A stretch of DNA of 64,000 nucleotides from Naegleria gruberi (lineage: Eukaryota). The first letter of the stretch is position 1; every line of letters begins with the position of its first letter. Under the pieces are notes generated by a model. That model did not search any database. It worked only from the letters and a program-made list of their open reading frames with translations, and was not told where the DNA came from. The translations under genes were made by a program, and so were the position numbers. The stretch lies in assembly GCA_000004985.1 (NCBI GenBank), contig GG738873.1, one strand, 5' to 3'. Below are positions 1,528 to 60,128 of the stretch, in pieces.

Positions 1528-3429
1528 TTATTGGATTAAACATTTAGGTTTACCATTATTCGAAACTTGAGAATCCTGTAAAAGACAGCACTTTACAATC
1601 AATTCTTTCAATTCTTCAATTCCCACCATTTTCAATGAAGAAACTTCTGTAAATGATAAACATTTCAATTCTCTGGCTAGATTTTCTCCTTCCTCATACG
1701 AAACTATTCTTGGTTTTTCTTTCGAATAAAAATTTTCTCCTGGATTATAATTCCTCAAATCAGATTTTGTTCCCAACAGTAGAATTGGTGTTTTTGGTGA
1801 GTGAAGTCTTGTTTCCTCTACAAAAGTATCCTTAACTCGATGAAAGCTGTCTAAATTGTAGATACTGTACACTACAATGGTAAGATCTGGTGGAGGAGAG
1901 TAGGATAAATATCTAATTATTTCATAATCATATCCTCCAGCTGTATCTCTCATTTGGAGTGTGAATGTTTGATTTTTGAGAGTTACTGGAATTGGATGTT
2001 CACTTTCGAATACTGTTGGGATGTATTCTTGTGGAAATTCATTCATGGCTAGTACTATTTGCATTGAGGTTTTACCAACATTTGATGATCCAATTACGGT
2101 AATTCTAAATTCATGTAAATTATTTTCAGTTTCCTTGACAAGTTGTTGAATGTCTTGTTTTAAAATTTCCTGTTTTGGCTTGAATTGAAATTCAATGAGG
2201 GTTTTAATTCTTCCCAGTTCAATAATGTGATTTTTGGATTGTTGATAAAAAGTTCTTGAATGTAAAGCAAGATTGTAATAATTAACTCCACTACGTCGTG
2301 GGCTCACATTTTGTGATTTGCTTAACAAGAACTTCTTCCATAATTTGTCCTCAATGCTTAGTTGACTAAGTTGACAGTCTTTTCCAATCAATTGAACATT
2401 ATTGAGATCATGAACTGGTAAATATTCCAAAATCATTCTAAAAATGTCTTCGTTTAGCATTGATAACTTTCCATTATTTTCCTTTGCATTGATATTTGAG
2501 ATAGATTGTTGATATTTTCCTCCCCAGACAAAATAATAAACCACAAAGGTTAATTCGTGGGGTGTGTAAATGGTCAATGAATGGAAAACAGGTCCAAATT
2601 CAGAATTATTAAACACTCGAGAGAGAAAATGAAAGTTTTCTTCTCTCCACTCATTCTTCTCTGAGAGGTTTAAACTATGTAGAGTGGTAAAATCATGATT
2701 TGAATTACAACCACCAATCAAGAATAGCCTATCGTTTTCTATCCATGATTTGTGACCATATCTTGAAATATTTTGAGGAATTTTCTTGATTTTACAATTC
2801 AGATACTCAGATTCTGATAAATTTTCTAAATCAATTAGTAAAACGTCATTGATTGGAATATTTCCACTTTGTTTTCCACCTGAAATGATCAACAAATTAT
2901 TGTAAATCAGTGAGGAATGAAAGTATCTCCCCAAAATTTCATTATTTTTCCTATTTTTTAAAGACCGACATTTCCATTCGAAAGTTTTCAAATTTAATTC
3001 GAAAACTTGATTGGAAACAAATCCATCAGAATCATATCCACCAAATATAATCATGGAATCTTTGTAAATCTCAGCAGAATGTCCAAATCTGGGAGAAATA
3101 ACTTGATCATTCACAGTTGTTAGTTTCGTCCATTTTCCAACAGATTCCTTTGAATTAAATTCGAATTGCCAAACATCAGCTAGATATCCATTCGATTTAC
3201 CACCAAATAAAATCATTTTGTGATCATGGGAGATTGCAGAATGGAAATTTCTTGGAGATGGTTTTTCACCTTCCGATAAAATTATTGGAATGCAAGATTC
3301 TGATGAAATTTCATAAACTCTCAACTGATCAGAGTATTCGTTTTGATTGGCACTTTCGAGTAATCCACCAAAAATTAAAATATATTCATTGTTGATATTG
3401 ACGGATGTGTGACCGATGAGTTTTGACAT
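1528..3429 (-). CDS. Kelch-repeat beta-propeller, F-box and Rho/Rac-like GTPase in one polypeptide (633 aa)
   Basis: Single uninterrupted ORF with an A-rich context before the ATG. The N-terminal about 330 aa carry repeated kelch-type motifs (ILIFGG, MILFGG, MIIFGG, LIISGG, LFLIGG). An F-box-like segment follows (LNEDIFRMILEYLPVHDLNNVQLIGKDCQ...DKLWKKFLL). The C-terminal domain aligns to Rac/Rho: GSSNVGKT P-loop, YIPTVFE, DTAGGYDY, LLGTKSDLR. Confidence 0.8.
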   Translation of the reverse strand: MSKLIGHTSVNINNEYILIFGGLLESANQNEYSDQLRVYEISSESCIPIILSEGEKPSPRNFHSAISHDHKMILFGGKSNGYLADVWQFEFNSKESVGKWTKLTTVNDQVISPRFGHSAEIYKDSMIIFGGYDSDGFVSNQVFELNLKTFEWKCRSLKNRKNNEILGRYFHSSLIYNNLLIISGGKQSGNIPINDVLLIDLENLSESEYLNCKIKKIPQNISRYGHKSWIENDRLFLIGGCNSNHDFTTLHSLNLSEKNEWREENFHFLSRVFNNSEFGPVFHSLTIYTPHELTFVVYYFVWGGKYQQSISNINAKENNGKLSMLNEDIFRMILEYLPVHDLNNVQLIGKDCQLSQLSIEDKLWKKFLLSKSQNVSPRRSGVNYYNLALHSRTFYQQSKNHIIELGRIKTLIEFQFKPKQEILKQDIQQLVKETENNLHEFRITVIGSSNVGKTSMQIVLAMNEFPQEYIPTVFESEHPIPVTLKNQTFTLQMRDTAGGYDYEIIRYLSYSPPPDLTIVVYSIYNLDSFHRVKDTFVEETRLHSPKTPILLLGTKSDLRNYNPGENFYSKEKPRIVSYEEGENLARELKCLSFTEVSSLKMVGIEELKELIVKCCLLQDSQVSNNGKPKCLIQ

Positions 3430-4412: not shown

Positions 4413-7400
4413 CTAGAAATTTTGAATGTCAGCACTTGTTGGTCTCATACTTGGTTCCTTTGAGACCATAGTCACAATAAAATTGCAAAGCTTCTCAGAG
4501 TAACCTCTTGATATCAAGTGTTCCATTGTTCTGTCCAACACCACTTCTTCCTTATCGTATAATAATTGAGCTGTAATGTTTAAATCTAAGGAATCATTTG
4601 CCATGGCCTGAATGAGTGAAACTCCAAGTGAAAATATATCAGCACTATAACTGTATTTTCTAGAAAAGACCTCAGGTGCCATATATTGCAATGTTCCTGC
4701 AACTGAATTTTGAGTTTCTCCAGTTTCCTTTGCCTCTCCATAATCACCAATAACCACTTGGATTTCATCCAATTCACGGTCCAATTTACTATAGAAAATA
4801 TTACGTGGTTTGATATCTCTGTGAACAATTAGTTTCTCTTGGTGAAGATAGTTCAAACCATCTCCAAGTTGTTTCATGATGGAGATGATCATCTTCTCAG
4901 AGACAATCTTTCCATCTTGTTTCAAATCTTTCAAGGCATGTTCCAAGTCGCCTTCATAAAATTTCATTACAATACAAATAGATTGAATAATCTGTGCTTC
5001 AAAGAATTCATAAACTTCAACCAGATTTGCATGTCTGTATGAAAGTGTTTTGGAACATTCATCAATAATTTTAGAATGTCTGCTTTGATCATAACTAATA
5101 GTCTTGATGGCAACTGGCATGTCATTCTTTTTAGAATCCAAACAGAGATAACATTTACCAAATGCACCCTGACCAATAACTTGTTGAATCTTGTATCTAT
5201 CTTTGAGCAAAGAATGATCTGTGTTTTGAGTAGAAGAAGTAGTAGTTGTGTTAGTATTGGAAGTATTGGAAGACAATTGGTACAAGGAATTGTTAAAGGT
5301 ATCGCTTGGGAAATCTGAAGTCACTGATGTACTATTATTGGCTGTTTGAGTGACATTTTCATCAATGGTTGTTATCATTTCAATTGGTTTTTCCTTAGTA
5401 ACCAGTGGTTTGCTTTTCTTCTTCTTTAATTTCACAATGAGACAGATGGTGACAATGATTGCAAGCAATATTAACAATACCAATAATGTTAAACCCACAA
5501 CCAATCCAACAATCAATCCAATGTTAGAATTAACTGGAGTAGTCACTTGTCCATTCTTGGATGCAAGTGGAGAGACATAGGTAGGAGGAACAATTCTATT
5601 CTCACAACTCAATCCACTATATCCTTCCAGACATGAACAACCATTACTTGATGTACATGTTCCATTTCCACTACAATTTTTCACGGCATCACAAGAGAAG
5701 AGGGAACAATCGAGACTTCCCTTCCATCCACTAGTGCATGAGCATGTATTATTACTCACACAGAAACCATGTCCTGAACAGGCATTCAATGTTTCACATG
5801 AGAAGAGAGAGCAATCAGAACTTCCTCTCCAGCCAGAATAACACGAACAATTGTTCATTACACAATCTCCATGTCCACTACATTGATTCTGTAGGTCACA
5901 ACCAAAAGAGATTGCTCTCACCTTTCCATTACTTGTGTCAGCAATGAAAATTTTAGATTCATCAGCAGAGAGAGCTACTCCCATTGGTCCATAAAATTGA
6001 GTTTCCAAAGGGTGCAAATTCTCTCCATTGTATCCATACAGTGGTGCAGTACCAGCAATGGTTATCAAAGTTCCATTCTTAAATAATTTCCTTATGGCAT
6101 GGTTTTGGGAATCAGAAATCAATAGTTCATCATTGGATAAAATGGCAAGACCAGCAGGATATCTCAACATTGAATTAACACCACTCAAATTCTCCCCACT
6201 ATATCCATCCACCCCAGTTCCTGCAATGGTAATGAGGGTTCCATCATTGAGAATTTTTCTCACTCGATGGCCTTCATACTCTGAAAAAATAACTTCATTA
6301 TTAGAGGTCAGTACAATTCCATATGGATTATTAATATTGGCACTAGTTGCTAATAGCCCATCTCCATTGTAGGTAGAAGTACCGGTACCAGCTACAGTAA
6401 TGATGGTCTGATTGAAAAACACTTTTCTAATTCGATGATTTCCAGAATCGGTAATGTACAAATCTCCATTTGTGGATCTGGCAATTCCTTTTGGTAAATT
6501 TAAATGAGCACTAGTAGCAGGAATGTTATCAGCATTGTATCCAGTAGTTCCAGATCCAGCTTTTGTTATTACAATTCCACTAGAAGATATGAGATATTTC
6601 ACAGTTGACGAATCAACAAAATAGTACTCCCCTACATTGGGCACGAGTGGAGATCTGGGTGAAATATAACTTGGAGTAATGGTTGTGATAATTCCACCGA
6701 GTGAAATCTTTCTCAATCTATAATTTCTTGTGTCGGCCACAATAACCTCATTATTTGGAGCGACAGCAACCGATTCTGGACCAAAGAGTTTTGCCTTCAC
6801 TGCCTCAATATTATCACCATTGTAGCCGAGATTGGAACCTGTTCCAGCAACAGTAGTGATGATATTGTTTGTGTTAATCTTTCTGACTCTGTAATTTCCA
6901 CCATCGGAAATGAAAATCTCCCCACTCGAGGATATAGCAATGCCTCTTGTGACTCTGAACATGGCATTGGATGCCAATTGATTGTCTCCAGCATAGCCAT
7001 ATGATGATCCAGCTATTAATGTTGCAACTCCATTCGTTTGAATCATGTACACTTTATCTGAAACAGTGACATAGAGAGCACCAGTGATTGGAGATATTGC
7101 CATTCCATTGACTGTATTAGTCTGGCCAGAGAGTTCAAAAGTAGTGAACATGACTACACTGGTGCCATTATTGAAAACCTTTCTAATCTTGTCATATTCT
7201 CCAATGTAAACTTCTCCACTATTAGAGATGGCAATGGAAGTGGGGAAGTTTAACTGTGCATTAGTTGCATCCTGTACCACAGTGGATGTATCTGTTCCAC
7301 CTCCAGCGAATGTTCTAATGATACCATCCGTATACGAAACTACACGAATTTTGTTATTTGAGGTTTCTGCAATATATAAATTATTATTCACAGGAGAGAT

Positions 7401-7961
7401 GACAATTCCACCTGGTGTATTCAATAGTGCATTGGTAGCGACTCCATCATCACCGATACTCCCTGGTACACCAACTTGACCAGCGTATGTGCTAATCAAA
7501 TTACTAGATAATATGACCTTTCGAATAACATGACTATTCGTATCAGACAAGTACATGACATCACTATTCTGAAAAGCAAGTGCACTAGGATAATTGAAAC
7601 GAGCCAAAGTTGCTATAGTTGTCGTGACAGAACCAGGAATACCCACACCAGCAATTGTTTTAATTTTACCACTACTTGCCACTACTTGTCTCACTCGACA
7701 ATTTATCTTGTCAACTATGAAAATGTCACCATTGTTACTTGGAGAGAGTGCAAGACCATCAGGTATGGCAATTTCTGCCTTGGTAGCATCAATGTTATCA
7801 CCATTGTAACCATTGGGATAACTACCTGCTATGGTTTTTACATGGTATAAAGATTGACCGTGGACAATTGGTTGGGCAGCAAGAAACACCAAGTGAAACA
7901 AAAACAACAATGGTAGCAAGAATGTTGAGCTATTAGTGTTGTTGAGTTTCAATTTGTCCAT
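4413..7961 (-). CDS. Receptor-like protein kinase (1,182 aa) with signal peptide, NHL-repeat propeller, EGF-like Cys-rich modules, a transmembrane helix and a C-terminal Ser/Thr kinase domain
   Basis: Continuous ORF with an A-rich start context. The N-terminus MDKLKLNN...LLPLLFLFHLVFLAA looks like a signal peptide. There are more than 15 NHL-type repeats (YNGDNI.A..A.L..P.G.A......IYIAD..N.RIRK.). Three CSGHG.C....C.C..GW.G..C modules look like EGF repeats. A TM segment (GLIVGLVVGLTLLVLLILLAIIVTICLIV) is followed by a kinase with GQGAFGK, VAIK, HRDIKPRN, DYG and MAPE motifs. Confidence 0.8.
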   Translation of the reverse strand: MDKLKLNNTNSSTFLLPLLFLFHLVFLAAQPIVHGQSLYHVKTIAGSYPNGYNGDNIDATKAEIAIPDGLALSPSNNGDIFIVDKINCRVRQVVASSGKIKTIAGVGIPGSVTTTIATLARFNYPSALAFQNSDVMYLSDTNSHVIRKVILSSNLISTYAGQVGVPGSIGDDGVATNALLNTPGGIVISPVNNNLYIAETSNNKIRVVSYTDGIIRTFAGGGTDTSTVVQDATNAQLNFPTSIAISNSGEVYIGEYDKIRKVFNNGTSVVMFTTFELSGQTNTVNGMAISPITGALYVTVSDKVYMIQTNGVATLIAGSSYGYAGDNQLASNAMFRVTRGIAISSSGEIFISDGGNYRVRKINTNNIITTVAGTGSNLGYNGDNIEAVKAKLFGPESVAVAPNNEVIVADTRNYRLRKISLGGIITTITPSYISPRSPLVPNVGEYYFVDSSTVKYLISSSGIVITKAGSGTTGYNADNIPATSAHLNLPKGIARSTNGDLYITDSGNHRIRKVFFNQTIITVAGTGTSTYNGDGLLATSANINNPYGIVLTSNNEVIFSEYEGHRVRKILNDGTLITIAGTGVDGYSGENLSGVNSMLRYPAGLAILSNDELLISDSQNHAIRKLFKNGTLITIAGTAPLYGYNGENLHPLETQFYGPMGVALSADESKIFIADTSNGKVRAISFGCDLQNQCSGHGDCVMNNCSCYSGWRGSSDCSLFSCETLNACSGHGFCVSNNTCSCTSGWKGSLDCSLFSCDAVKNCSGNGTCTSSNGCSCLEGYSGLSCENRIVPPTYVSPLASKNGQVTTPVNSNIGLIVGLVVGLTLLVLLILLAIIVTICLIVKLKKKKSKPLVTKEKPIEMITTIDENVTQTANNSTSVTSDFPSDTFNNSLYQLSSNTSNTNTTTTSSTQNTDHSLLKDRYKIQQVIGQGAFGKCYLCLDSKKNDMPVAIKTISYDQSRHSKIIDECSKTLSYRHANLVEVYEFFEAQIIQSICIVMKFYEGDLEHALKDLKQDGKIVSEKMIISIMKQLGDGLNYLHQEKLIVHRDIKPRNIFYSKLDRELDEIQVVIGDYGEAKETGETQNSVAGTLQYMAPEVFSRKYSYSADIFSLGVSLIQAMANDSLDLNITAQLLYDKEEVVLDRTMEHLISRGYSEKLCNFIVTMVSKEPSMRPTSADIQNF

Positions 7962-8504
7962 TTTTTTGAAAGTTATTGGTCTTTGTTAACACAGTATCTT
8001 GGTCTCTCCACAAGGAAAGGTCGCGGTACTCATCCAAGATACTACTCTCCATGGAGTTCAGTTGCCAATATAAAGATCGGACTTGCAATCTCATTCACGC
8101 ATTCATGTGTACCTGTTCAAGTTTAAAAAAGTGTTGTTTTTGAACATGAATGAGCAATGCATAGAAGGCACAATATTTAAAATGTTTGCGAATGATTCGT
8201 TTCAAAAAGTGATCATGTTCATTAAAGTTTCATTGTCACATTGAACAATGATAGTATCTGCAGAACCAACGAATGGTCTGTTTCAAATATTTGTTGCACC
8301 AAATCAGAATGGTAACATTTTCAAATGCAAGTCTCTTACTGTCAACATCGTCCATCTCTCAGTGGACCTTAAGAGAGTATCAATTCGTGCCTTGGAAGCT
8401 TTTTTGTTTGGATGGAGGTCTTGGTTTAAGTGTGGGAGATTGTGGTGGAGTAATTGAGGAAGAATCATTTGATACTATTGACCTATATTTTCTTTATAAA
8501 AAAA

Positions 8505-9618
8505 TGGCAAAACACAATCTTGCATCTCTTCCACAAGAAATTCTTCGGATCATATTATCGTATCATGTAATAGGCACATGTGGAGAATCAGCTGATTCTT
8601 CTCGGAAGGAAAAAACAACAATTTCCATCAATCAAGAAATTAAATTTATGACCAATTTTCAATCGATCAGTTCAATAATTAATAGCAAATTAAAGGAATA
8701 TTTTGATGATTTTTGGAGTGGAATTTTTGAACAATATTGTGTTGATGAAGAGGAGAAACAGGATCCTAAATTTCGAATAATGAAAGAGAAATTGGTAGAA
8801 ATGGACGAATTAAAGAGAAAGATTCTTTTAATTCGTTATATTGCTCCGATTATGATAAAACACGAAAAGATAAGAAAGACATTTAGAGATTATTTGAGAA
8901 TTGTAGTATTTGGTGATGAAGCAGTGGGTTAGTTTATTTGAAATTAATTGTTTCTAATATTGAAAAGGAAAGTCCAGTATAATTCTACGTTTCATAGAAG
9001 GTGAATTTAAAGAATGGGATCCAACTGTTGAGGATTTTCATTTGAAATCTGTAAAATTTGGAAATTCAACAACTAATCTCGATATTCTTGGTGTGGGTAC
9101 GTGAATTGAAATATTTCTTTTTAACAATTCTCGAAACTCCATATACGGATAGCTGGCCAAATGGAACACAACTCACACAGCATTAGAAATGGATATCTGA
9201 GTCAATGTGATTGTTATCTGGGTGTCTGCTCAGCAACCATCAAAAATTCAATGAATTATATAGAAGAAAACATTCAAGATTTAAATAATTCTAAGGATGG
9301 GCCCTACACACCAATCATTGTTGTGTTAAATAAGATGGATCTTATTGAGAATGATATCAATGACAGTTCAGATCGGAAATGAACAGAATTATTAAGAAAA
9401 ATAATCTTGAAAATGTTTTCACTGTTGAATGCAGTGCCAAGACAGGCGAAAATATTTCACTAATATTTGATGCATGTATTCAAATGTATATTTATGAATA
9501 TTTGAGAAGAAAGTGGTGGAATCTTTTGGAAAATGTCGCCAAGTTTGACTCTAAATATATTGAGCTGTGTACTGCTGATCCTTCCAAGTCAAAGAAAAAA
9601 ACTTGCCTCCTGAACTAG
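8505..9618 (+). CDS. Ras-like small GTPase with an N-terminal F-box-like extension and a polybasic CAAX tail. At least three introns (8928-8967, 9097-9152) plus a frame discontinuity near 9365-9400.
   Basis: ATG at 8505 in an aaaaaaATGG context. LASLPQEILRIILSY is F-box-like. Exon 1 ends GDEAVG at a GTTAGT donor, exon 2 gives GKSSIILRF...DPTVEDF, exon 3 gives VAGQ...IIVVLNKMDL (NKxD), and the last ORF gives ECSAKTGENI (SAK) then KSKKKTCLLN-stop (CAAX). The NKMD-to-SAK junction needs either a 31-nt GTTCAG...AAG intron (9368-9398) or a 1-nt frameshift. Confidence 0.55.
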
Positions 9619-9671
9619 TAATTTTAATGGTTTGTAAACTTGGAGATTGAACTGACAGTTTGTTAAAAAAA

Positions 9672-12600
9672 ATGATAATTGACCAACACCAAACTGCACC
9701 TCGTTGGATTTGCAACAAGTGCCAAGGATTCATCGATAGGGGAACAATCCGATACGTCAATACTGATGAAAAGGACTTTGACTTGTGTGAAAATTGTTAT
9801 CACTGGTGTTGGGAACAGTATCAGAAGAGAAAGCAACATAATACAAATTCACAATTTAATTCTCTTGATGATGATGGTGATGATGATGTTGGGAATAACA
9901 CGGAAAATAACAAAATATTGGACATGTTCTGTAGGGATTTGGAATTTATTGTACCAACCAAGTATCACTATTCTGAAATGAAAGGACGAATTAAAAGTTC
10001 CGATCGGTTTAATAGTTCTCTGTTTAGATCATTTGTTGAATATTCACTCAATCCTTGCTTTGGATTGTTGAAACAAGATGATGGTCCCTATCATTTTCAA
10101 ACCTATGAACAGGTATTTCATTTGATTTGTTGCATCAGTATTGGATTAGATCAGATTTTGAAACCATTAATACGAGTGGGAAAGAGACAATTTGTATCAA
10201 TATGTGGAAAGAATAATTTGTATTGGTATTTGAGTGATTATGCTTGTTTCTTTAGGGGGTTTGTGATTGCCCCCATTCATTTTGCTCAATCATTTGAGGA
10301 GACGAAATATTGCATTGAACTGACAGAGAGTCAAGTTGCTATTTGTACTGAAGAAATGTTAGATTTATTCATTAGAATTACCAAAGAGTTGGATATTGTG
10401 AAATATATTATTGTAATGGATGATACAGAATCAAAATCAAGAGGAAAATTTACCAATCAAAGAGGAACACAAGAAATTGAAATTATTCCAATGAATGACA
10501 TTATTGACGCTGGAAAATCAATATTGTGTGAATATTTGAATGAAAAGAACAAACCAAGAACGAATCCATATCCAGAACATTATGAAAATCACGAGACAAT
10601 CCTTGTGACTCCACCTCAGGACAAGTACGATCCTAGAAAGATGTGGATTGGAGTGGAACATGAAGAATTTATTCTAAATAGGTTGGATAATGAGGAGGAT
10701 CTAGTGACTCTTGTTTTCACAAGTGGATCCACTGGTATTCCAAAAGGAATCATGATGAGTGATAGAGCTTTGAGAAAGGAAGTACTCAGTTTAAGGATAA
10801 AAGATCCTAAAGTTCGTTTCTCTTTTTGTCCACTCGCTCACATGAGTGATAGAAAATACACCCTATTGGCCATGTGTAATGGAGCCAGAGTTGGAATATT
10901 TACTAGAGAATTTGTTCACATCTTTGAGGATATTCAAAACTGCAAACCAGTTGTAATTGCATCCACTCCAAGATTATTCAATGTGCTGTACGATGAGTTT
11001 AAGAAAGTAGTCGAATTGGAAAGAATTCGTTGGCTTTCTTCCACTGAAACTGGGAAACCAAAAACTGAGAAGGAACTTGAGGAAAGAACCATGCTTGACT
11101 TTCAATACATGCTTGGTGGGCGTGTTCAATCAATTATTCTTGGAGGGGCTTCTTCTAGCCCACAATTAAGAGAATTTTTGGCAAAATGTTTCCAGTGTAA
11201 AGTAACAGATGGTTTTGGAATGTCTGAAGCTGGAGGAATTATGAATAACAATCGACTCAACACTAATGTCGAATACAAGTTGATTGATGTTCCTGAATTG
11301 AGCTATTTCACAACAGACAAACCTTATCCGAGAGGAGAACTTTGTGTCAAGACAAATTACATGTTTATTGGATATTATAAGAATGAAGAGCTCACTAATA
11401 ATGCACTGGATGAAAATGGATGGTTACACACCAACGATATTGTTGAAGAATTAGGACCAAATCAAATCAGAATTATTGACAGACTGAAGAATATTTTCAA
11501 ATTGAGTCAGGGTGAATTCATAGCACCTGCCAAGATTGAAGATGCTCTCACTACCTCTAAATTTATTTTCCAAGCTTTTATTTATGGCAATGTGACAAAG
11601 AGCTACTTGGTTGGTGTCATTGTTCCCAACAAAACAGTTTTAAAACAGTTTGCAATTAAGGAAGGAATTATCAAACCATCAGCCGATCACCATCTCCTAA
11701 ATGAAGAAGAGAAAGAAGTATTGGCAAATAATGAGCTGATCAAGAAAGCTCTATGTGAAGAGATTGAGAAAGTTGCTGTAAATTGTTCACTTTTGTCTTA
11801 CGAAGTTCCAAAAGATTTTATCATTGAATTTGAACCTTTTAGTGAGAAAAATGATTTACTAACCTCCTCTATGAAGGTTAAGAGATTTGGATGTGAAATG
11901 AAATATAAGGAACAATTGGAGACACTCTATGAGCATGTAGATAGAAATTACAAGAGAAAGTTGGACGAAGATTTGATTCGTGAATTGTTAGTGAACTCCT
12001 CATCAGGCTCAGAGGAATCTGCAGATGGAAATATGAAAATTATTGACAGTCTTCATGCAGTTAAATTTTCTGGAATTATGAAACAAAAATTCAACATTGA
12101 CATTCCACTTTCATTGATATTTTCTCAAACGGATAGGAATGTGGAAAGTGTAGTGAGTAGAGTTTCAAACTTTGTCACAAAAGGCCAAACTAATCAGCAA
12201 TCGTATGACTGGAAAAAGGATATTCTCTTACCACAAGAACTTCTCGATGAAATTACTGACATTACTTCAAAAGGAAAGCAGAAATTCAATAAGATATCAA
12301 ACCTAAAGAAGGGTATTCTTCTGACTGGCTCAACTGGATTTTTAGGTGCCTTCCTATTGAGAGATTTATTGGAGAATTTACAAACAGCTCAGGAGCATGT
12401 GAAAATCTATTGTTTGATAAGAGAAAAGAATCAGCAACACAGTTTATTCACTAGATTGAAGAAACATCTTGTAAAATTCAATATCTGGAAAGATACTTAT
12501 GAAAGGAGAATATCTGTCATTAGGGGAAATTTACAGGATGAGAATTTAGGTCTCTCTCATGAGGAATTCAACAAATTGGCTGGAGATGTTGACATTATTT

Positions 12601-13604
12601 ACCACAATGGAGCATATGTCAACTCAGTCATGTCGTACTCTCAATTATTCTCTTCCAATGCTGGATCTACGTACTATTTATTGAAACTTGCTTGCCTGTC
12701 ATCAAAATTGAATATCCAAAATGATGGAGATTCCTTAACACCAATTATTCTCGTTTCAACTGTTGGTGTTGTACAATCTGCGTTGTCAGAATTTGATCTA
12801 CCAACCAGAAAATCTCAAGTTAATGATAACCCTCAGGAAACTAAAGAAATGATTAGCAATCATGTCGATCAAGTCATTGGTCAACTGAAACCAATTATTG
12901 AAAAAGCAGCTGGGTATAACAGCACCAAATTTATTGCAGAACAATACATTCAACAAGCAAGGTTATTGGGATATCCCGGTGCCATCTTTAGACCAGGAAT
13001 GATTGGAAGTGATACTGAGAATGGAGTTTCGAATTTAGAGGACTGGGTCAATAGGTTGATTCTGGGATGTTTCGAATTGGGTTGCTTCCCACAAACCAAA
13101 AAATCTCTCAATGTCATTCCTGTGGATATTATTTCAAGAGTGATTGTGGAATTGACACAGAATGAGAATGTATTCATTGGTACTTTACAATCCAATCCAA
13201 ACTATTTGATTTATGAGGTGGCTAATCTTTCTCAATATGAAATTCAAATTGATAATTTACTTGGCATCGCTGCCACAACTCTAGCGAAATTGCTAAACAA
13301 GAAACCAATGGAAATGGTTAGCTACACTAAGTGGAAACAAATACTGAATGAGAGAACATCAACCGAAGAAAACGAAATGTTATTGATTTTGAAAACTCTC
13401 TTCAAATCAGATACGGAATTTCTAAAAAGCATAAACAAACTCCAAGACAACCACATTCAGAAAATCATTGAAGTTCTTTCTAGATCAGAAAGCATACAGT
13501 GCAGAGAATTAGTTCCTAACAAAAATCTAAACCAAAACTATCTTGAAAAACAAGCTCTATACCTAGTCCAGAGTCTCAAGAAGAAATTGGGCGAAAATTT
13601 ATAA
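9672..13604 (+). CDS. ZZ-type zinc finger, long-chain acyl-CoA-synthetase-type adenylation domain, phosphopantetheine carrier (PCP) domain and NAD(P)-dependent thioester reductase domain (about 1,310 aa)
   Basis: Uninterrupted ORF; the first ATG at 9672 has an A-run before it. The ZZ finger is CNKCQGFIDRGTIRYVNTDEKDFDLCENCYHWCWEQY. AMP-binding motifs are LVFTSGSTGIPKG, GYYKNEELT..GWLHTNDI, IIDRLKNIFKLSQGEFIAPAKIE and LLTSSMKVKR (ACSL-type). The carrier motif is GNMKIIDSLHAVKF...IDIPLSLIF (DSL serine). The reductase domain has LLTGSTGFLGAFLL (Rossmann fold) and GYNSTKFIAEQ (YxxxK). Confidence 0.85.
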   Translation: MIIDQHQTAPRWICNKCQGFIDRGTIRYVNTDEKDFDLCENCYHWCWEQYQKRKQHNTNSQFNSLDDDGDDDVGNNTENNKILDMFCRDLEFIVPTKYHYSEMKGRIKSSDRFNSSLFRSFVEYSLNPCFGLLKQDDGPYHFQTYEQVFHLICCISIGLDQILKPLIRVGKRQFVSICGKNNLYWYLSDYACFFRGFVIAPIHFAQSFEETKYCIELTESQVAICTEEMLDLFIRITKELDIVKYIIVMDDTESKSRGKFTNQRGTQEIEIIPMNDIIDAGKSILCEYLNEKNKPRTNPYPEHYENHETILVTPPQDKYDPRKMWIGVEHEEFILNRLDNEEDLVTLVFTSGSTGIPKGIMMSDRALRKEVLSLRIKDPKVRFSFCPLAHMSDRKYTLLAMCNGARVGIFTREFVHIFEDIQNCKPVVIASTPRLFNVLYDEFKKVVELERIRWLSSTETGKPKTEKELEERTMLDFQYMLGGRVQSIILGGASSSPQLREFLAKCFQCKVTDGFGMSEAGGIMNNNRLNTNVEYKLIDVPELSYFTTDKPYPRGELCVKTNYMFIGYYKNEELTNNALDENGWLHTNDIVEELGPNQIRIIDRLKNIFKLSQGEFIAPAKIEDALTTSKFIFQAFIYGNVTKSYLVGVIVPNKTVLKQFAIKEGIIKPSADHHLLNEEEKEVLANNELIKKALCEEIEKVAVNCSLLSYEVPKDFIIEFEPFSEKNDLLTSSMKVKRFGCEMKYKEQLETLYEHVDRNYKRKLDEDLIRELLVNSSSGSEESADGNMKIIDSLHAVKFSGIMKQKFNIDIPLSLIFSQTDRNVESVVSRVSNFVTKGQTNQQSYDWKKDILLPQELLDEITDITSKGKQKFNKISNLKKGILLTGSTGFLGAFLLRDLLENLQTAQEHVKIYCLIREKNQQHSLFTRLKKHLVKFNIWKDTYERRISVIRGNLQDENLGLSHEEFNKLAGDVDIIYHNGAYVNSVMSYSQLFSSNAGSTYYLLKLACLSSKLNIQNDGDSLTPIILVSTVGVVQSALSEFDLPTRKSQVNDNPQETKEMISNHVDQVIGQLKPIIEKAAGYNSTKFIAEQYIQQARLLGYPGAIFRPGMIGSDTENGVSNLEDWVNRLILGCFELGCFPQTKKSLNVIPVDIISRVIVELTQNENVFIGTLQSNPNYLIYEVANLSQYEIQIDNLLGIAATTLAKLLNKKPMEMVSYTKWKQILNERTSTEENEMLLILKTLFKSDTEFLKSINKLQDNHIQKIIEVLSRSESIQCRELVPNKNLNQNYLEKQALYLVQSLKKKLGENL

Positions 13605-24612: not shown

Positions 24613-26056
24613 TTACATGATGAACAACTTCTTGCCGTCCTCTTCTTGGAATGATTTTCCATCTCTTGGATCAACAAATGTTCCATTATTCTTTGCCATA
24701 TTTTCTGCCACTCCTTTTTGACTGTATACATTTCCATTTGGGAATACAAGAGGCGGATTTAAGTGATCCATTATATCTCCACAAATTGAACAAACAAGTT
24801 TGGAGTGGTGATGGTGAGCGAATGGTAAATCCTTTGCAAGCTCTTTGAATAGTGGATGTGACAGTGGGTCGTTAACATTGATCGAATTCTCATCGTATGA
24901 ATAAGGGGTCTTGAGTGCAGAAAGTCCAGCTTTAAGAAGTTTGAAAAGGGTGGCCTCCTCAGTCATTCCATAAAGTTTGTAATTCTCCTTATTGAACTCT
25001 TCCACCAATTCATCCCATCTCTTATCATCGTACAATTCCTTATATCCTGCCATTAGAGTTTTTGGTCCAAATGCAAGAGCAGCCATAATTTTCTTTACAG
25101 TATTAGTTTGTTCAGGTGTTATTTTACAAGAGTTATCGTCTTCATTTGTTGTTGTTGCTGCTGATGAATTACCCTTATCTACAATAGGATTAGTTAGGTA
25201 TTTTCTTGCATGAATAACAGCTTCCATTTTCTTATCTTGCTTTGATAATTCAATAAATTCCTGAACTCTAAGATCAAACTCTATATTGCTCTGAATTTTT
25301 CCAATAAATTGTTACATAATAAGTCAACATATTGATGCAAATGTAAACATATAAATAATTATTACACAAAATAGTCATTCACACAATTATTAGAATAATT
25401 AAAGCAATTCAAGTAAATTAAATCCAACTTACTGATATCTTTCTCAATCTTGATCTGTTCTCCGAGCACCACTTAAGAGCTGGACCACAATCATTATTTT
25501 TCAAACCCTCAATAATTCCTCTAATTTGAATAAACACTTGAGTATTTACCAAGTGCTTAATCTTTTCCGAATCAGCCAAGGCTAGAGCAGTTTCATAATG
25601 TCCAAATCGAAGAAGATAATCTACCAACACTCTACTCACTCTCACCCTTCTCCAATTGGAAAGAGTACGATACTGATTATCATCAATATTGGAGGTAGAC
25701 TTTCTTCTTGATATGGCTCCATCAATGAGTGGATATTCATTGAGGTGATCGATACGATCCTTGCACGTATTCAATAATTGTGTTTCTTCAATGTTGGTTT
25801 CTTCCAACTTTCTCTTAACTCCTCTCAACTTGGTTACAACCTTATCGAGAAAATTAGTTTGATCTTGAATGGAGAGGTTTTGTTTTGAAGCCTTTTGAAG
25901 CATTTCCTTCATGGCCTTTTCTAATATTGATAAATCCTTCTCAACCGATTTTTGTGATGATCTAAACTCAAAGTTTAGCATTTCAAAGGGTACCTGAAGT
26001 AAATCATGTTCCGATTCTAATTCTTTGGAGGTTGAATGAGACAATGATGAAGACAT
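24613..26056 (-). CDS. maea: MAEA/Fyv10-type CTLH-complex E3 ligase subunit with LisH, CTLH, CRA and Gid-type RING domains. join(24613..25290,25433..26056).
   Basis: Exon 1 carries LisH (LVDYLLRFGHYETALALA) and CTLH (ALKWCSENRSRLRK). A GTAAGT donor at 25432 and a 142-nt intron lead to an acceptor ttcag at 25291. Exon 2 starts SNIEFDLRVQEFIELSKQDKKMEAVIHARKY and ends SKLVCSICGDIMDHLNPPLVFPNGNVYS...KLFIM. It is collinear with human MAEA ([24 protein letters not shown]..., NPPMMLPNGYVY, KVYIM). Confidence 0.85.
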
Positions 26057-28619: not shown

Positions 28620-29447
28620 CTATTCCTTCTTTGACTTCTTACTAGACAATGCCTTGATAATACCCTTAGTGAGTTTAGTGAACCACATGATATTCAAAAA
28701 GGCCAAATTCAAACATTGGAGAAGCCAAAAACCGAGAGCAATCCAACCATTAACACCCTTTTCACCAACATAATTCATCCAAGCTCCCCAAGTATGAACA
28801 AAGAAGAGAATATTAAAGACAACATATCCAAGTCTAAAGATTGCCCATGAAAGCCACATCATTAATCCGTTCAAGACATAGATCATTGCTTCCTTGAAGC
28901 CTCCCTTCTCCAAGAACCATCTACCATTAATAAAAACAGTAGTATGTTCAGTCAATGTGACCCAGACACCCAAAATTTGAGCAACCTTCAATTGAACAAG
29001 TGCAATTTGAGCACCAGCAATACAAACATGGTGAATAATCATTTCAATTCCTCCAATTTGTGGATAATAATAAAAGACAAACAATAAATCAATAATCATA
29101 TAACCAGTTGAATAGTAAAAGATACATTCAGCATATAAAGAAGTGTGAAGGAAATCCCATTCAGACAAAAACTTGATATCATTCAATAAAATCCATCCTC
29201 CGACAAATCCCATCACAAATGAGTGAATTGAAGAAATGATACGTGATTCGTATTCATTTCGATCTTTGAGTTGAAGAGAATTGTAAAACTTTGGAAGGAG
29301 AATTGTTTTACAAAGAATTTTCATAACAAATAAATAGAGCAAGAGATTTCCGACCAAACTTGCCAACAATACTTGATGAGGAGTTGAAATTCCATAAGAA
29401 GACAAACTTTGATGCACGTCTTGAACAATTTGAATCACTCCACTCAT
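28620..29447 (-). CDS. TLC (TRAM/LAG1/CLN8) domain multi-pass membrane protein
   Basis: 275-aa ORF with about 6 hydrophobic helices and a conserved HH pair (IIHHVCIAG), typical of the TLC/TMEM56 family. It ends in a Lys-rich tail. Confidence 0.65.
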   Translation of the reverse strand: MSGVIQIVQDVHQSLSSYGISTPHQVLLASLVGNLLLYLFVMKILCKTILLPKFYNSLQLKDRNEYESRIISSIHSFVMGFVGGWILLNDIKFLSEWDFLHTSLYAECIFYYSTGYMIIDLLFVFYYYPQIGGIEMIIHHVCIAGAQIALVQLKVAQILGVWVTLTEHTTVFINGRWFLEKGGFKEAMIYVLNGLMMWLSWAIFRLGYVVFNILFFVHTWGAWMNYVGEKGVNGWIALGFWLLQCLNLAFLNIMWFTKLTKGIIKALSSKKSKKE

Positions 29448-33367: not shown

Positions 33368-36046
33368 ATGAAAAAACAACACAACAGCAAGGTGAGAAAA
33401 TCCATGAATCCCTCCTTGTTATCTTCTCTCTTGCCAACACCAACAGCATCATCAACAACTGAAGATATTTCTGAGGAGCCAACAGATTCCTCTCCTATTA
33501 GAGAAACAACAACAACAAGAAGGAGAAATAATCATGCAACAGTAGTATTGGCAATTGATGAGGAGGAGAATGATAATGATGATGAGGAAGTAAATGATGA
33601 AATTGGATTATCCATTGCAAAGAGTGAGATTTCCCTCCGAACACTTCCAATGATTAATTCAATAGAAAAGGATTTTTCCGATGATGATGAAGATGATGCA
33701 GATGAAGCCTTTGATGATTTGAATGAAGAAGAAGAAACTCTATTATACTATCGGAGGGATGACACTGTGAGTGAGGATTCATCTACTGGAGCAGCTGCTT
33801 CCTCTGCTATCAATGGAGGATTTAATTCATCATCAAACAATGCTACTAGAGGAGTCTCTAATCCTCTTCTCGTAACATCAGAAGCAACAAATCCAATTCT
33901 TAATTATGGAACTGAAAAGAAGAAGAAAAAGAAGAAGAAGAAGAAGAAATCAGACAAGGCCAAATTGGATTTACAATTCATGATTCGGTTTTTCAAAATA
34001 ATTGGATATTGTCTGAGGGATATTGGATATAATAGTGATTATCATTGGACTGATGAGAATGGAAGAAGAGTTTCCAGATTGTTTTCAAGAAAACGAGTCG
34101 TGCATGAATTGAATCAATCAGAGAAGAAGGGATGTGGAGCATTTTGTTACAACTTTTCATTGTTTAACGTGTTTTTGGTGGTTCTCTTCTTGCTTATTTG
34201 CATTGGAGAGATTTTACTGGGAAATGAAGTTGGTAAATTACCTGGAGCTTTCTATACTGTAATTATTGATGCGAGTTCTAAGAATTTTGGAGATGCCAAA
34301 CCATTTATTCATGTCATGTTGACAAGTTTACTTTGGATTTGTGGAATAACAGCTCTGAAAACTTTTAGACAATTTATTTTGGATGTTATTCGAGTTTATT
34401 GGAGAAGAAATTTAACTTATCATACACAGAGGAGATATTTCGAGAATAGTAACTTTTACAAAATGTTGTTACTTGATAAGAGAATTGATAATCCAGATCA
34501 AAGAATTACCAAAGATGTAGAGAATTTTGTAGATATGACTTGTAAATTAATTGAGAGTGTTTTCACAGGACCAATCACTGTATTTTACTATACTGTCACT
34601 GTGTTTATGAATTTGGGTTGGCAAGGGCCTCTTTTCTGCTTTGTCTTTTTCATTATTGGTTCCATTTGTAACAAGTTGATTATTTCACCAATTGCTAATT
34701 TGTGGTTTATTCAAGAAAAGTTTGAAGGAAATTTCAGATATACTCATGCATTGTTAAGATCAAATGCAGAGTCTGTTGCCTTCTATGGAGGAGAATCAAA
34801 TGAAAAGATCAAGTGCAATCAAAAGTTGAAAGGAGTAATCAAGAATAGAAGAAAGATTGTTGTGTGGAATTTACTCTTGAATGGAAATATGAATTTATTT
34901 GGTTATGTTGGAAGTATTTTGGCATATGTGATTGTTGCCATTTCTGTATTCTTGATTGGTGGATTTATTGATGCCAATGCTACAGCAGGTGAAATTGCTG
35001 GCAAGATTTCTGTTGTAAGTATTCTTGATTGTGTAAATTAACATGTGCAGTCTTCATTCCAAGTAATGATGCTCATCTATGGTTTTACCACCTTCATTCA
35101 GACTGGTGCTAATATTTCAGAACTTGCTGGTTTTACTGGAAGACTCGGTGAAATGTACGAAGTGATGAATGAAATTGAGAAGGATACTGAATTGAATAAT
35201 ATTGGAAAGGTTACTGAGGAACACTCACTTTTGGAATCAACAACATCCAATAATAATTATCAACAAGAATCGGATAGATCTGGATCCACCGATACTAACG
35301 ACGTGAACTATATTGAATTTAAGAACGTCTCTGTATCTGTTCCAAAAGGTATCAGAGAAAAGTACAGAACCAATCACAACCTTGTTGAAAATCTTAGTTT
35401 CAAGATTTTACCAACTCAACACACTTTAATTGCAGGTCCTAGTGGTTGTGGTAAATCATCAGTTTTAAGAATTTTGGCAAATTTGTGGCCAAACAACTCT
35501 GGACAAATTATCAAACCGTCCACAACTCTTGGAAACAGTTCGAAACCAAATATTTTCTACGTTCCTCAAAACCCTTACATTTCCAGTGGTTCGCTAAGGG
35601 ATCAAATTACTTACCCACTCAAAACTCCAAAGAGAAATGTGGAAGATCATCCAGCTCTCTTAGAAGCCATTCAGCAGTCTCGACTCGAATATATTCTCGA
35701 ACGAGTTCATAAGAAGGATTGGGATGGTGAGTGTAATTGGAATGAATTGTTGAGTCCTGGAGAGAAGCAACGTTTAGCTCTTGCTAGAATCTTTTATCAC
35801 AAACCTAAATTTGTAATTCTCGATGAAGCAACCAGTGCTTGTGATGTAAATGTTGAAGAGATGATTTATCGTGACATTATCAAACAAGGATCTACAGTCG
35901 TTTCAGTTGGCCATCGTCCAACCATTGTGAAATTCCACACTCACATGCTTAGACTGAATGGATCAGCCTCAACTTTGGAAAATGCTAAAGGATGGGAATT
36001 TGGAGAAATTTCAGAATTCAGAACGAAAAAGAAGAAGAATTATTAA
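33368..36046 (+). CDS. ABC transporter, subfamily D (peroxisomal-type half transporter). join(33368..35014,35051..36046).
   Basis: ATG follows an A-run. A low-complexity N-terminus precedes a membrane domain with ABCD hallmarks (NPDQRITKDVENF, EAA-like loop). A 36-nt intron (GTAAGT...gtgcag, phase 0) joins it to a nucleotide-binding domain with Walker A GPSGCGKSS, signature LSPGEKQRLALAR, Walker B VILDEATSA and an H-loop. Confidence 0.8.
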
Positions 36047-59021: not shown

Positions 59022-60128
59022 TTACCACTCTAGAGATTTATCTTGGGATGGCTTCTTATCTTGTGGTGTTGAGGCAGCATCTGTTTGAGATGAAGATGAT
59101 GATTGTTGTTCAATCTCTTTGGCCATTGCTTCTCTACCTGCTCTTGCTTGACCATGAGATGAGTATAAAGTAATTCTGGCAGTACCCTTGTTAAGACCTT
59201 CAAGGAAGACACATGCTCTACACAATTCTTGACTACTAATATAACCACACTTGACACAGTTCATCAAAGTTCTCTTTTTTACAGTGGAATCCTCTGAGAT
59301 TGTTTCATTGGTAAATTCAAATTGTTCAGCAGATTTAACAATATCAATAATTGTTTGAGGTCGTAATTGTTCCAAATCCTTGATAAGTTCTCTAGCATGT
59401 CCTCTGTAAGCATTTGGAGAATAAGAGCACTCAGTACTAAAGTAATCTAATTTCTTAAAATAGGCGTAGAGAACAATTTCCTTTTGATAAGTATACTTGA
59501 ATGGTTTGGCTCTTGGAATGCTAAAACCTCCTTCATCATGTGTAATAATATCAACACATCGTTCAAGTCTTCCAATATCTCCTCTAAGAATATTCATCAA
59601 AACAGTTTCAGCAATATCATCGGCATTGTGACCAGTTACCATCTTGTCAACCTTTAATTGTTCACATCCTCTATCAAGTGCTTGTCTTCTGAAAACTCCA
59701 CAGAATGTACAGTTATTCTTCAATCCGATTTGTTGAACAATTTCATCCATTGACCATCCATATAATTCTTTATAACTTAAAATTTTGAGAGGTACTTGAT
59801 ATTGCTCTCTATTTCTTTTAACTGTTTCTAAACTATCATCTCTATAACCTTTAATACCTTCATCAATACTCAACAAGTATAAATCCAATCCGTAATTATA
59901 TCTTTCATTCAAAACTTTCATAATATGTGCCAACGCTGTAGAATCCTTTCCACCACTAGCAGCAATAGCAACCTTATCTCCAGGTTTAAATAAATTATTA
60001 TTAATAATAGTTTCATGAATTTCCGTCTCGAACAAGTCAAAGAAACATTCCCTACAAATGAGGGCTCCGTTCTTTGGTCTTTTAAGTGCTGCGTTTCTAG
60101 AGTTGCAGTTTGCACAAGGCTTTGGCAT
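59022..60128 (-). CDS. ctu1: Cytoplasmic tRNA 2-thiolation protein 1 (CTU1/NCS6, PP-loop ATPase)
   Basis: 368-aa ORF. It has an N-terminal Zn motif ([25 protein letters not shown]), a PP-loop ([17 protein letters not shown]) and C-terminal Cys pairs ([16 protein letters not shown]), collinear with CTU1/Ncs6. Confidence 0.85.

Follow-up and report, generated by a model that had tools for sequence, protein, structure and literature searches.

A probable carboxylic acid reductase of the bacterial type I lineage behind a ZZ-derived finger in Naegleria gruberi

A four-module enzyme gene

Which enzyme is encoded by an uninterrupted open reading frame (ORF) of 1310 codons in Naegleria gruberi, and does its domain layout stand alone? 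The ORF lies on the + strand of a 64,000-nucleotide stretch of contig GG738873.1 (GenBank assembly GCA_000004985.1), the whole of which we call the window. An initial annotation, made from the sequence alone, had read the gene as a long-chain acyl-CoA synthetase (ACSL)-type ligase fused to a peptidyl carrier protein (PCP) and a reductase, with a ZZ zinc finger in front, and could not place this architecture in a described family. We propose that it probably encodes a functional carboxylic acid reductase (CAR) of the bacterial type I (CAR/FadD9) lineage, in which a ZZ-derived finger precedes adenylation (A), thiolation or carrier (T) and reductase (R) domains in the order A-T-R. That a single uninterrupted ORF holds finger, adenylation, carrier and reductase modules, as first described, was borne out by the ORF list and the domain evidence. 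We assigned the following features to the locus, using AlphaFold2 (AF2) models where stated.

9672..13604, + strand: complete single-exon coding sequence of the ZZ-A-T-R CAR-like enzyme, 1310 aa plus stop (ORF list, collinear homologues)
9702..9815, + strand: ZZ-derived finger, aa 11-48 (Pfam, family profile, AF2)
9816..9968, + strand: linker, aa 49-99, with two predicted helices, the first running on from the finger, and acidic low-complexity sequence between them (AF2, sequence)
9969..11951, + strand: adenylation (ANL) domain of the CAR/FadD9 type, aa 100-760 (Pfam, NCBIfam, alignment, Foldseek)
11964..12182, + strand: divergent carrier (PCP/T) domain, aa 765-837 (alignment, AF2, weak Pfam)
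12315..13601, + strand: terminal NAD(P)H-dependent thioester reductase, aa 882-1310 (Pfam, TIGR01746, PDB, alignment)

Family assignment of the catalytic core

Pfam AMP-binding matched aa 140-569 (E 3.5e-44), and the A domain carries the motifs TSGSTGIPKG (350-359, A3), PLAH (387-390), GMSEAGG (516-522), GWLHTNDI (583-590, A7), IIDRLKNIFKLSQGEFIAP (601-619), the A8 block IIDR...LSQGEF with LSQGEF at 611-616, and SSMKVKR (732-738, with the A10 Lys); a lineage-specific insert of ~90 aa interrupts the A core around aa 255-340. All of the motifs quoted in the initial annotation were located in the 1310-aa protein. We scored the A segment (aa 95-760) alone and obtained 336 bits with the NCBIfam carboxyl_red model; among the long-chain-fatty-acid-CoA ligase models the best, PRK06187 (cutoff 476), gave 131 bits. 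In a local phmmer comparison, the A domain reached 163-245 bits with bacterial-type CAR/FadD9 homologues and 98-125 bits with stand-alone ACSL-like proteins, the latter set being drawn from the homologues that we collected. The ACSL-like block (GW.HTGD...IDR...KLSQGEF) was also present in the aligned A domains of bacterial type I CAR/FadD9 proteins.

Searches with the whole protein agreed with this placement. The best NCBIfam family was carboxyl_red (NF041592, E 1.3e-132, 443.6 bits), and the best PDB sequence match was the CAR structure 5mso, which aligned in one stretch over aa 341-1141 (E 2.3e-88) and was followed by 5msp, 5msc and 6oz1. Fungal non-ribosomal peptide synthetase (NRPS)-like proteins matched at E 1e-8 to 1e-12, compared with ~1e-80 for bacterial CARs. 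We modeled aa 111-1310 with AF2 from an alignment of 57 sequences, and the model had a mean predicted local distance difference test (pLDDT) score of 85.7; its best Foldseek matches were CAR structures from Segniliparus, Mycobacterium and Nocardia, comprising A domains and the A-PCP didomain (E 1e-39 to 1e-44), with 5mss, 5msw, 6oz1 and 5msd as the top structures. The A-T-R order within one polypeptide was confirmed by Pfam, by NCBIfam, by the collinear 5mso match and by AF2 with Foldseek.

The R domain matched Pfam NAD_binding_4 over aa 884-1158 (E 2.2e-54) and the TIGR01746 thioester-reductase model (199 bits). Its PDB matches were the MxaA R domain and the R region of CARs, among them the MxaA/polyketide synthase (PKS) terminal R structures 4u7w (E 9e-38) and 8v1x (E 4e-32). 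The domain carries TGSTGFLG (885-892), Arg917, VSTVGV (1028-1033, with Thr1030), GYNSTKFIAE from aa 1081 (GYNSTK 1081-1086, with Tyr1082 and Lys1086) and GVSNLED (1118-1124).

Because the A domain scores nearer to CARs than to acyl-CoA ligases, we read the A-T-R core as a type-I-like CAR and not as a new ACSL fusion. Eukaryotic ACSLs do share the ANL fold and the GWLHTGD...IIDRxKxxFKLxQGE(F/Y) block with the window protein. They have no carrier or reductase domain. Membership of the ACSL/FadD ligases failed, with the CAR model outscoring the ligase models and T and R domains present, and the earlier notion of an unplaceable ligase fusion gives way to a CAR assignment in which the supposed ACSL hallmarks belong to bacterial CARs as well.

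Signature residues of carboxylic acid reductases

A sequence fingerprint of CARs has been defined and tested by mutagenesis (Stolterfoht et al., PMC5826065), and our comparison covers the motifs named in the text of that paper. All of these motifs were found in the 1310-aa protein. The essential residues are present, namely the His of PxxH (His390), the Glu of LSxGE, the T-domain Ser (Ser793) and the Tyr and Lys of GYxxxKxxxE (Tyr1082 and Lys1086). The remaining fingerprint elements have equivalents here: the A3 motif S/T-S-G-S/T-T-G-x-P-K corresponds to TSGSTGIPKG, G(S)TExG to GMSEAGG, TGxxGxxG (T/SGxxGxxG) to TGSTGFLG, the basic residue ~20 aa downstream to Arg917, and GxxNxxD/E to GVSNLED. 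Across the 57 aligned sequences these signature positions vary little or not at all, and all of the signature residues are retained by a second N. gruberi copy and by the orthologues of N. lovaniensis and Willaertia.

PMC5826065 also gives three features by which bacterial type I CARs differ from fungal ones: Phe instead of Lys after GE, the presence of the A10 Lys, and a catalytic Thr instead of Ser. All three are in the bacterial state in the window protein, with the Phe of LSQGEF, the Lys of KVKR aligned with the bacterial A10 Lys, and Thr1030 within VST. Fungal CARs of types II-IV (Aspergillus terreus, Neurospora crassa, Trametes versicolor) are likewise eukaryotic A-T-R enzymes that convert acids to aldehydes, and they share the general motifs; however, they have the Lys after GE, lack the A10 Lys and use a catalytic Ser, and a ZZ finger is not described for them in PMC5826065. 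With the bacterial type I CARs (EC 1.2.1.30; Nocardia iowensis, Segniliparus rugosus, Mycobacterium CAR/FadD9) the window protein has in common the A-T-R order, the signature motifs and, as we infer, the mechanism. It differs from them in its eukaryotic host, in an extra ~100 aa of ZZ-derived finger and linker, in IIDSL where they have GGDSL, and in the ~90-aa insert of the A core.

The carrier domain

The predicted phosphopantetheine site is Ser793 (nt 12048-12050), within IIDSLHAVKF (aa 790-799). The Asp-Ser pair aligns with that of the bacterial GGDSL and is invariant in 57/57 A-T-R proteins, and 17 carrier positions are invariant among five heterolobosean sequences. AF2 predicted four helices in this segment and put Ser793 at the start of the second, and the Foldseek alignment to the SrCAR A-PCP didomain passes through it. 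We built a profile from the five heterolobosean carrier segments, and all of its matches were carrier proteins (the TycC3 PCP, SrCAR and an acyl carrier protein) aligned at the Ser, at non-significant E values of 0.2-0.8. We regard the carrier domain as genuine and as probably functional, and it is the weakest-supported of the four modules.

The initial annotation had named Pfam domain searches as a check, and a PP-binding domain at IIDSLHAVKF as one point on which its reading would turn. AMP-binding and NAD_binding_4 matched strongly, while PP-binding and ZZ both scored below their Pfam cutoffs. The carrier is thus formally borderline by Pfam, and it is alignment and structure prediction that rescue it.

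Gene model and paralogues

The open frame starts with TTG at 9660, has its first ATG at 9672 and ends with the stop at 13604 (+). Stop triplets make up ~5.9% of the triplets in the window, from which we estimated the chance of 1310 stop-free codons at ~2e-35. An exhaustive protein search returned a partial N. gruberi model of 417 aa (EFC43457.1 / XP_002676201.1; source name "predicted protein, partial [Naegleria gruberi]"), which sits on a 461,873-bp scaffold and corresponds to aa 343-759 at 100% identity. The reference annotation of N. gruberi therefore carries just a fragment of the 1310-aa gene, and that model can be lengthened to cover the whole ORF.

Four collinear homologues back the full-length reading. 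An N. gruberi paralogue (P0001, 1324 aa) is 71% identical over 99% coverage, and the others are proteins of N. lovaniensis (P0003, 50% identity), of a relative (P0002, 52%) and of Willaertia magna (P0004, 44%). The window copy is 50-52% identical to the N. lovaniensis group, compared with 54% for the paralogue. A "SLFSG" (K..SLFSG) segment, ~20-30 residues ahead of the ZZ finger, is kept in the paralogue and orthologues (P0001-P0006) and is gone here. We looked 5' of the ATG for an upstream exon with the "SLFSG" motif and found none; the ~60 bp between the end of the adjoining gene and the ATG cannot accommodate one.

That adjoining gene (8273-9612, + strand) is intron-split and has Ras/Rab-like small-GTPase exons with NKMD and ECSAK motifs; its C-terminus is a CaaX-like CLLN, followed by the stop ~60 bp before the reductase ATG. 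Its N-terminal region contains the F-box-like sequence LPQEILRIILSY, and Pfam found no domain in that ORF.

The ZZ-derived finger

Both the family profile and the predicted fold bear out the ZZ finger of the initial annotation, which stands here in reduced form. The Pfam ZZ profile (PF00569) gave 17.1 bits (E 0.0049) with the isolated N-terminus, under its 21.4-bit cutoff, and was passed at the equivalent position in the proteins of Willaertia (26.2 bits), Balamuthia (36.0 bits) and Amphimedon (29.5 bits). A profile built from 20 family sequences matched the ZZ domains of NBR1, p62, BIG, RSC8, HERC2, p300/CBP, ADA2, MIB1 and KCMF1 (E 1.7e-10 to ~1e-4), with E values of 1.7e-10 to 1e-6 for NBR1, p62, BIG, HERC2 and p300. 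AF2 modeled aa 11-50 with pLDDT >90, and Foldseek matched the finger to the ZZ domains of p62, BIG, HERC2, NBR1 and KCMF1 with root-mean-square deviations of 0.7-2.5 A over 36-40 residues and probabilities of 0.97-1.0; the Foldseek E values are just 0.08-0.2 because the domain is short.

The first zinc site is kept: C14, C17, C39 and C42 are invariant in the 20 family sequences and align with the CxxC pairs of the p62 ZZ. The middle CxxC of the canonical ZZ is replaced by N-T-D-E, with Asn and Glu in place of the Cys pair. The third pair, first described as HxxC, is actually H44-W-C46 (HxC) and is absent from the paralogue and the orthologues. Given the N-T-D-E replacement and the lack of a conserved His pair, we regard the finger, on its sequence, as a one-zinc remnant of a ZZ domain.

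Elsewhere, ZZ domains belong to autophagy, ubiquitin and chromatin factors, in which they read protein N-termini, and p62 uses the Asp residues of its D-Y-D-L-C stretch to bind the amino group of its ligand. In the profile alignment, the D-F-D-L-C motif of the finger lines up with this stretch. The readers p62/SQSTM1, BIG, KCMF1, HERC2, p300/CBP and NBR1 are its best structure and profile matches, and the Cys4 site is common to both. In contrast to the readers, the finger has no second zinc site, has Asn where they have the Asp that follows the first Cys, and is joined to a metabolic enzyme, whereas theirs belong to ubiquitin, autophagy or chromatin factors. A ZZ finger on a metabolic enzyme is unusual, and its role is testable.

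A eukaryotic ZZ-A-T-R family

The layout is not peculiar to this gene and is common to dozens of eukaryotic homologues. The first 13 sequences served to build a ZZ profile, with which we found the finger N-terminal to the A domain in 54/233 collected homologues; no ZZ finger was found among the bacterial-type homologues examined. Named hosts are N. gruberi, N. lovaniensis, Willaertia magna, Physarum, Balamuthia, Acytostelium, Protostelium, Clastostelium, Anaeramoeba ignava and Amphimedon, which cover Heterolobosea, Amoebozoa, Anaeramoeba and a sponge, and the Amphimedon entry is named "carboxylic acid reductase-like". In transcriptome assemblies of Physarum, Protostelium and Clastostelium, the ZZ, A, T and R modules lie on one transcript ORF, so the fused layout has transcript-level support in relatives. 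These uncharacterized relatives share the four-module layout, the ZZ preceding the A domain in every case, and the window copy differs from them in being without "SLFSG". Most members, including P0007, P0008 and P0010-P0012, have a canonical two-zinc ZZ (CxxC..CxxC..CxxC..H..H); the first zinc site alone is kept in the heterolobosean proteins, in Balamuthia and in two metagenomic relatives.

We placed 164 A domains in a neighbor-joining tree, and all of the ZZ-bearing ones (48/48) fell in one clade of 74 that contains no named bacterial CAR. Bootstrap values for the split of this clade from the named bacterial CARs were 23-28/100, and we do not claim its monophyly as proven; Heterolobosea were monophyletic in 100/100 replicates. 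The 26 characterized CARs of a 2018 survey are all actinobacterial (type I) or fungal (types II-IV) (PMC5826065). With a type-I-like clade in Heterolobosea, Amoebozoa, Anaeramoeba and a sponge, the CARs would gain another branch, and biocatalysis would gain new enzymes. Three things are new: the range of eukaryotic hosts, a conserved ZZ at the N-terminus (degenerate in the window copy) and the incompleteness of the reference annotation.

Three members (P0014, P0035 and P0155) are much longer (1611-1910 aa), and in them several hundred additional residues precede the finger. For P0014 and P0035, BBE/FAD-oxidase domains are listed among the precomputed Pfam calls, a hint that some of the family may couple oxidation to reduction.

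Two publications were considered and set aside. A survey that reports fatty acyl-AMP ligases (FAALs) in two Naegleria species treats cd05931 FAALs, leaves CAR/FadD9 unmentioned and probably concerns other proteins, and a rotifer paper that names Naegleria and thioester reductase does not concern this gene.

Proposed mechanism

We propose the steps of catalysis by homology, with the mechanism of type I CARs, as summarized in PMC5826065, as the model. The A domain would use ATP to adenylate a free carboxylic acid, for which our leading guess, from the FadD9/ACSL-like A domain, is a medium- or long-chain fatty acid. A 4'-phosphopantetheine arm, attached to Ser793 by a phosphopantetheinyl transferase (PPTase) encoded elsewhere, would then take over the acyl group on its thiol; a CAR-like A-T-R mechanism in need of a PPTase, as first suggested, appears to be the right frame. 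The loaded carrier would swing to the C-terminal reductase, of the short-chain dehydrogenase/reductase (SDR) type, where NADPH would reduce the thioester and an aldehyde would be released, the reaction stopping after two electrons. The ZZ domain would be ancestral to the eukaryote-wide ZZ-A-T-R clade, with a one-zinc remnant in the window protein, and the role of the finger is most likely protein or ligand recognition, or localization, and not catalysis.

Such a route from acid to aldehyde is an unexamined one and would bear on the lipid metabolism of Naegleria. As a lead only, PEDS1, and hence a need for fatty alcohols, has been reported in Naegleria and slime molds (PMC11225845). A broader proposal, which we put forward tentatively and consider doubtful as a whole, is that ZZ-A-T-R proteins form an old eukaryote-wide family that turns free fatty (or other) acids into aldehydes with ATP and NADPH, the ZZ domain acting as a sensor of ligands or N-termini that controls or localizes the enzyme. 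If this were true, the route through acyl-CoA and fatty acyl-CoA reductase (FAR) would be bypassed, and phagotrophic amoebae and sponges would have a second source of fatty aldehyde or alcohol for ether lipids or signaling.

Evidence against the assignment and alternative explanations

Several observations weigh against a functional type I CAR with a ZZ-derived finger. The 443.6 bits of the protein do not reach the 1300-bit trusted cutoff of the NF041592 equivalog, and identity to the characterized CAR lineages is ~25-29%; the protein appears by these scores to be a distant relative of the bacterial CAR equivalogs, outside that equivalog group, and because of them neither substrate nor product can be transferred from characterized CARs. 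The carrier matched Pfam PP-binding at 13.7 bits (aa 791-827), under the 20.8-bit cutoff, has I-I in place of the GG of the bacterial GGDSL (Heterolobosea have (I/A/V)IDSL), and was modeled by AF2 with a confidence of ~65-78. We found no PPTase domain in 28/32 neighboring window ORFs of at least 150 aa that were scanned, the rest of the genome not having been searched. In the finger, two of the four ligands of the second zinc site are lost. Finally, we found no study of the ZZ-A-T-R clade in the literature on CARs, FadD9, Naegleria, amoebae, protists and ZZ proteins.

The carrier results raise the question of whether the carrier could be vestigial, the protein working as an acyl-CoA synthetase with a fused FAR-like reductase and without a phosphopantetheine arm. 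The sub-threshold PP-binding score, the change from GGDSL to (I/A/V)IDSL and the precomputed Pfam calls of four heterolobosean homologues, in which PP-binding is not listed, would fit such a protein. However, the invariant Asp-Ser pair and the 17 invariant heterolobosean positions indicate selection, the segment is predicted to be a four-helix bundle with the Ser at a helix N-terminus, its profile matches carrier proteins only, and the R domain is of the thioester-reductase type, so we give this explanation a slim chance. Loss of function by the whole gene, as a decaying paralogue, would account for the missing N-terminal segment of ~20-30 residues and for a faster-evolving sequence with slightly lower similarity to the N. 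lovaniensis group than that of P0001. The long stop-free frame, the intact state of every catalytic and structural signature residue and the confident AF2 model led us to reject a pseudogene, and we consider decay very improbable. A Lys2-type alpha-aminoadipate reductase for lysine biosynthesis would have the same A-T-R order, and the Lys2 model TIGR03443 did match at E 1e-58, but this match reached 198.8 bits (cutoff 1030) and was confined to the T-R region (aa 797-1265). TIGR01733, the model for amino-acid adenylation, gave 46 bits against a cutoff of 317, and fungal NRPS-like proteins are far weaker matches than bacterial CARs; the family assignment of the A domain effectively refutes a Lys2 identity, which we regard as next to impossible.

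With a type I CAR as the preferred reading, alternatives bear on its product and its substrate. Release of an alcohol by four-electron reduction is known for some terminal R domains (e.g., MxaA) and for FAR enzymes, and the window enzyme could likewise release a fatty alcohol in place of an aldehyde, feeding ether-lipid or wax synthesis directly. The strong matches of its R domain to the MxaA/PKS terminal R structures and the PEDS1 report (PMC11225845) are in keeping with this, but the closest full-length relatives are bacterial CARs, which yield aldehydes with high selectivity according to PMC5826065, and all of the R-domain signature motifs of CARs are present; sequence alone cannot separate two- from four-electron reduction, and we judge the alcohol to be an improbable product. 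The substrate could also be an aromatic or other small carboxylic acid, with a place in secondary metabolism or detoxification. Characterized type I CARs take aromatic as well as aliphatic acids (PMC5826065), and the BBE/FAD-oxidase fusions of P0014 and P0035 hint at small-molecule chemistry. The A domain nevertheless retains strong ACSL/FadD9-like motifs, and close relatives are named FadD9 or long-chain acyl-CoA synthetase, though these names are automatic, so a small acid seems to us an unlikely substrate.

Other genes of the window

The window has a GC content of ~34% and contains intron-split genes, with F-box/leucine-rich repeat (LRR) proteins and ribosomal protein L32e among its domain repertoire. 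We also recorded the following features.

1528-3429, - strand: Kelch-repeat/Ras-GTPase fusion protein
4413-7961, - strand: receptor-like kinase with an NHL/teneurin-EGF ectodomain
24613-26056, - strand: CTLH-domain gene split by an intron
28620-29447, - strand: TLC-domain (ceramide-synthase-like) protein
33368-36046, + strand: ABCD-type (peroxisomal-type) ABC half-transporter, two ORFs separated by an in-frame TAA
39988-46662, + strand: 2224-aa ORF with 14 bacterial Ig (Big_9) repeats, cadherin-like repeats and a VWA domain
59022-60128, - strand: PP-loop and zinc-ribbon protein (CTU1/Ncs6-like)

The ABC half-transporter gene is intact, since its TAA lies within a 36-nt mini-intron (GTAAGT...CAG, 35015-35050). 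The 2224-aa ORF looks like a bacterial-style adhesin and has a local GC content of 0.39-0.40, compared with ~0.33 elsewhere; its horizontal acquisition is possible.

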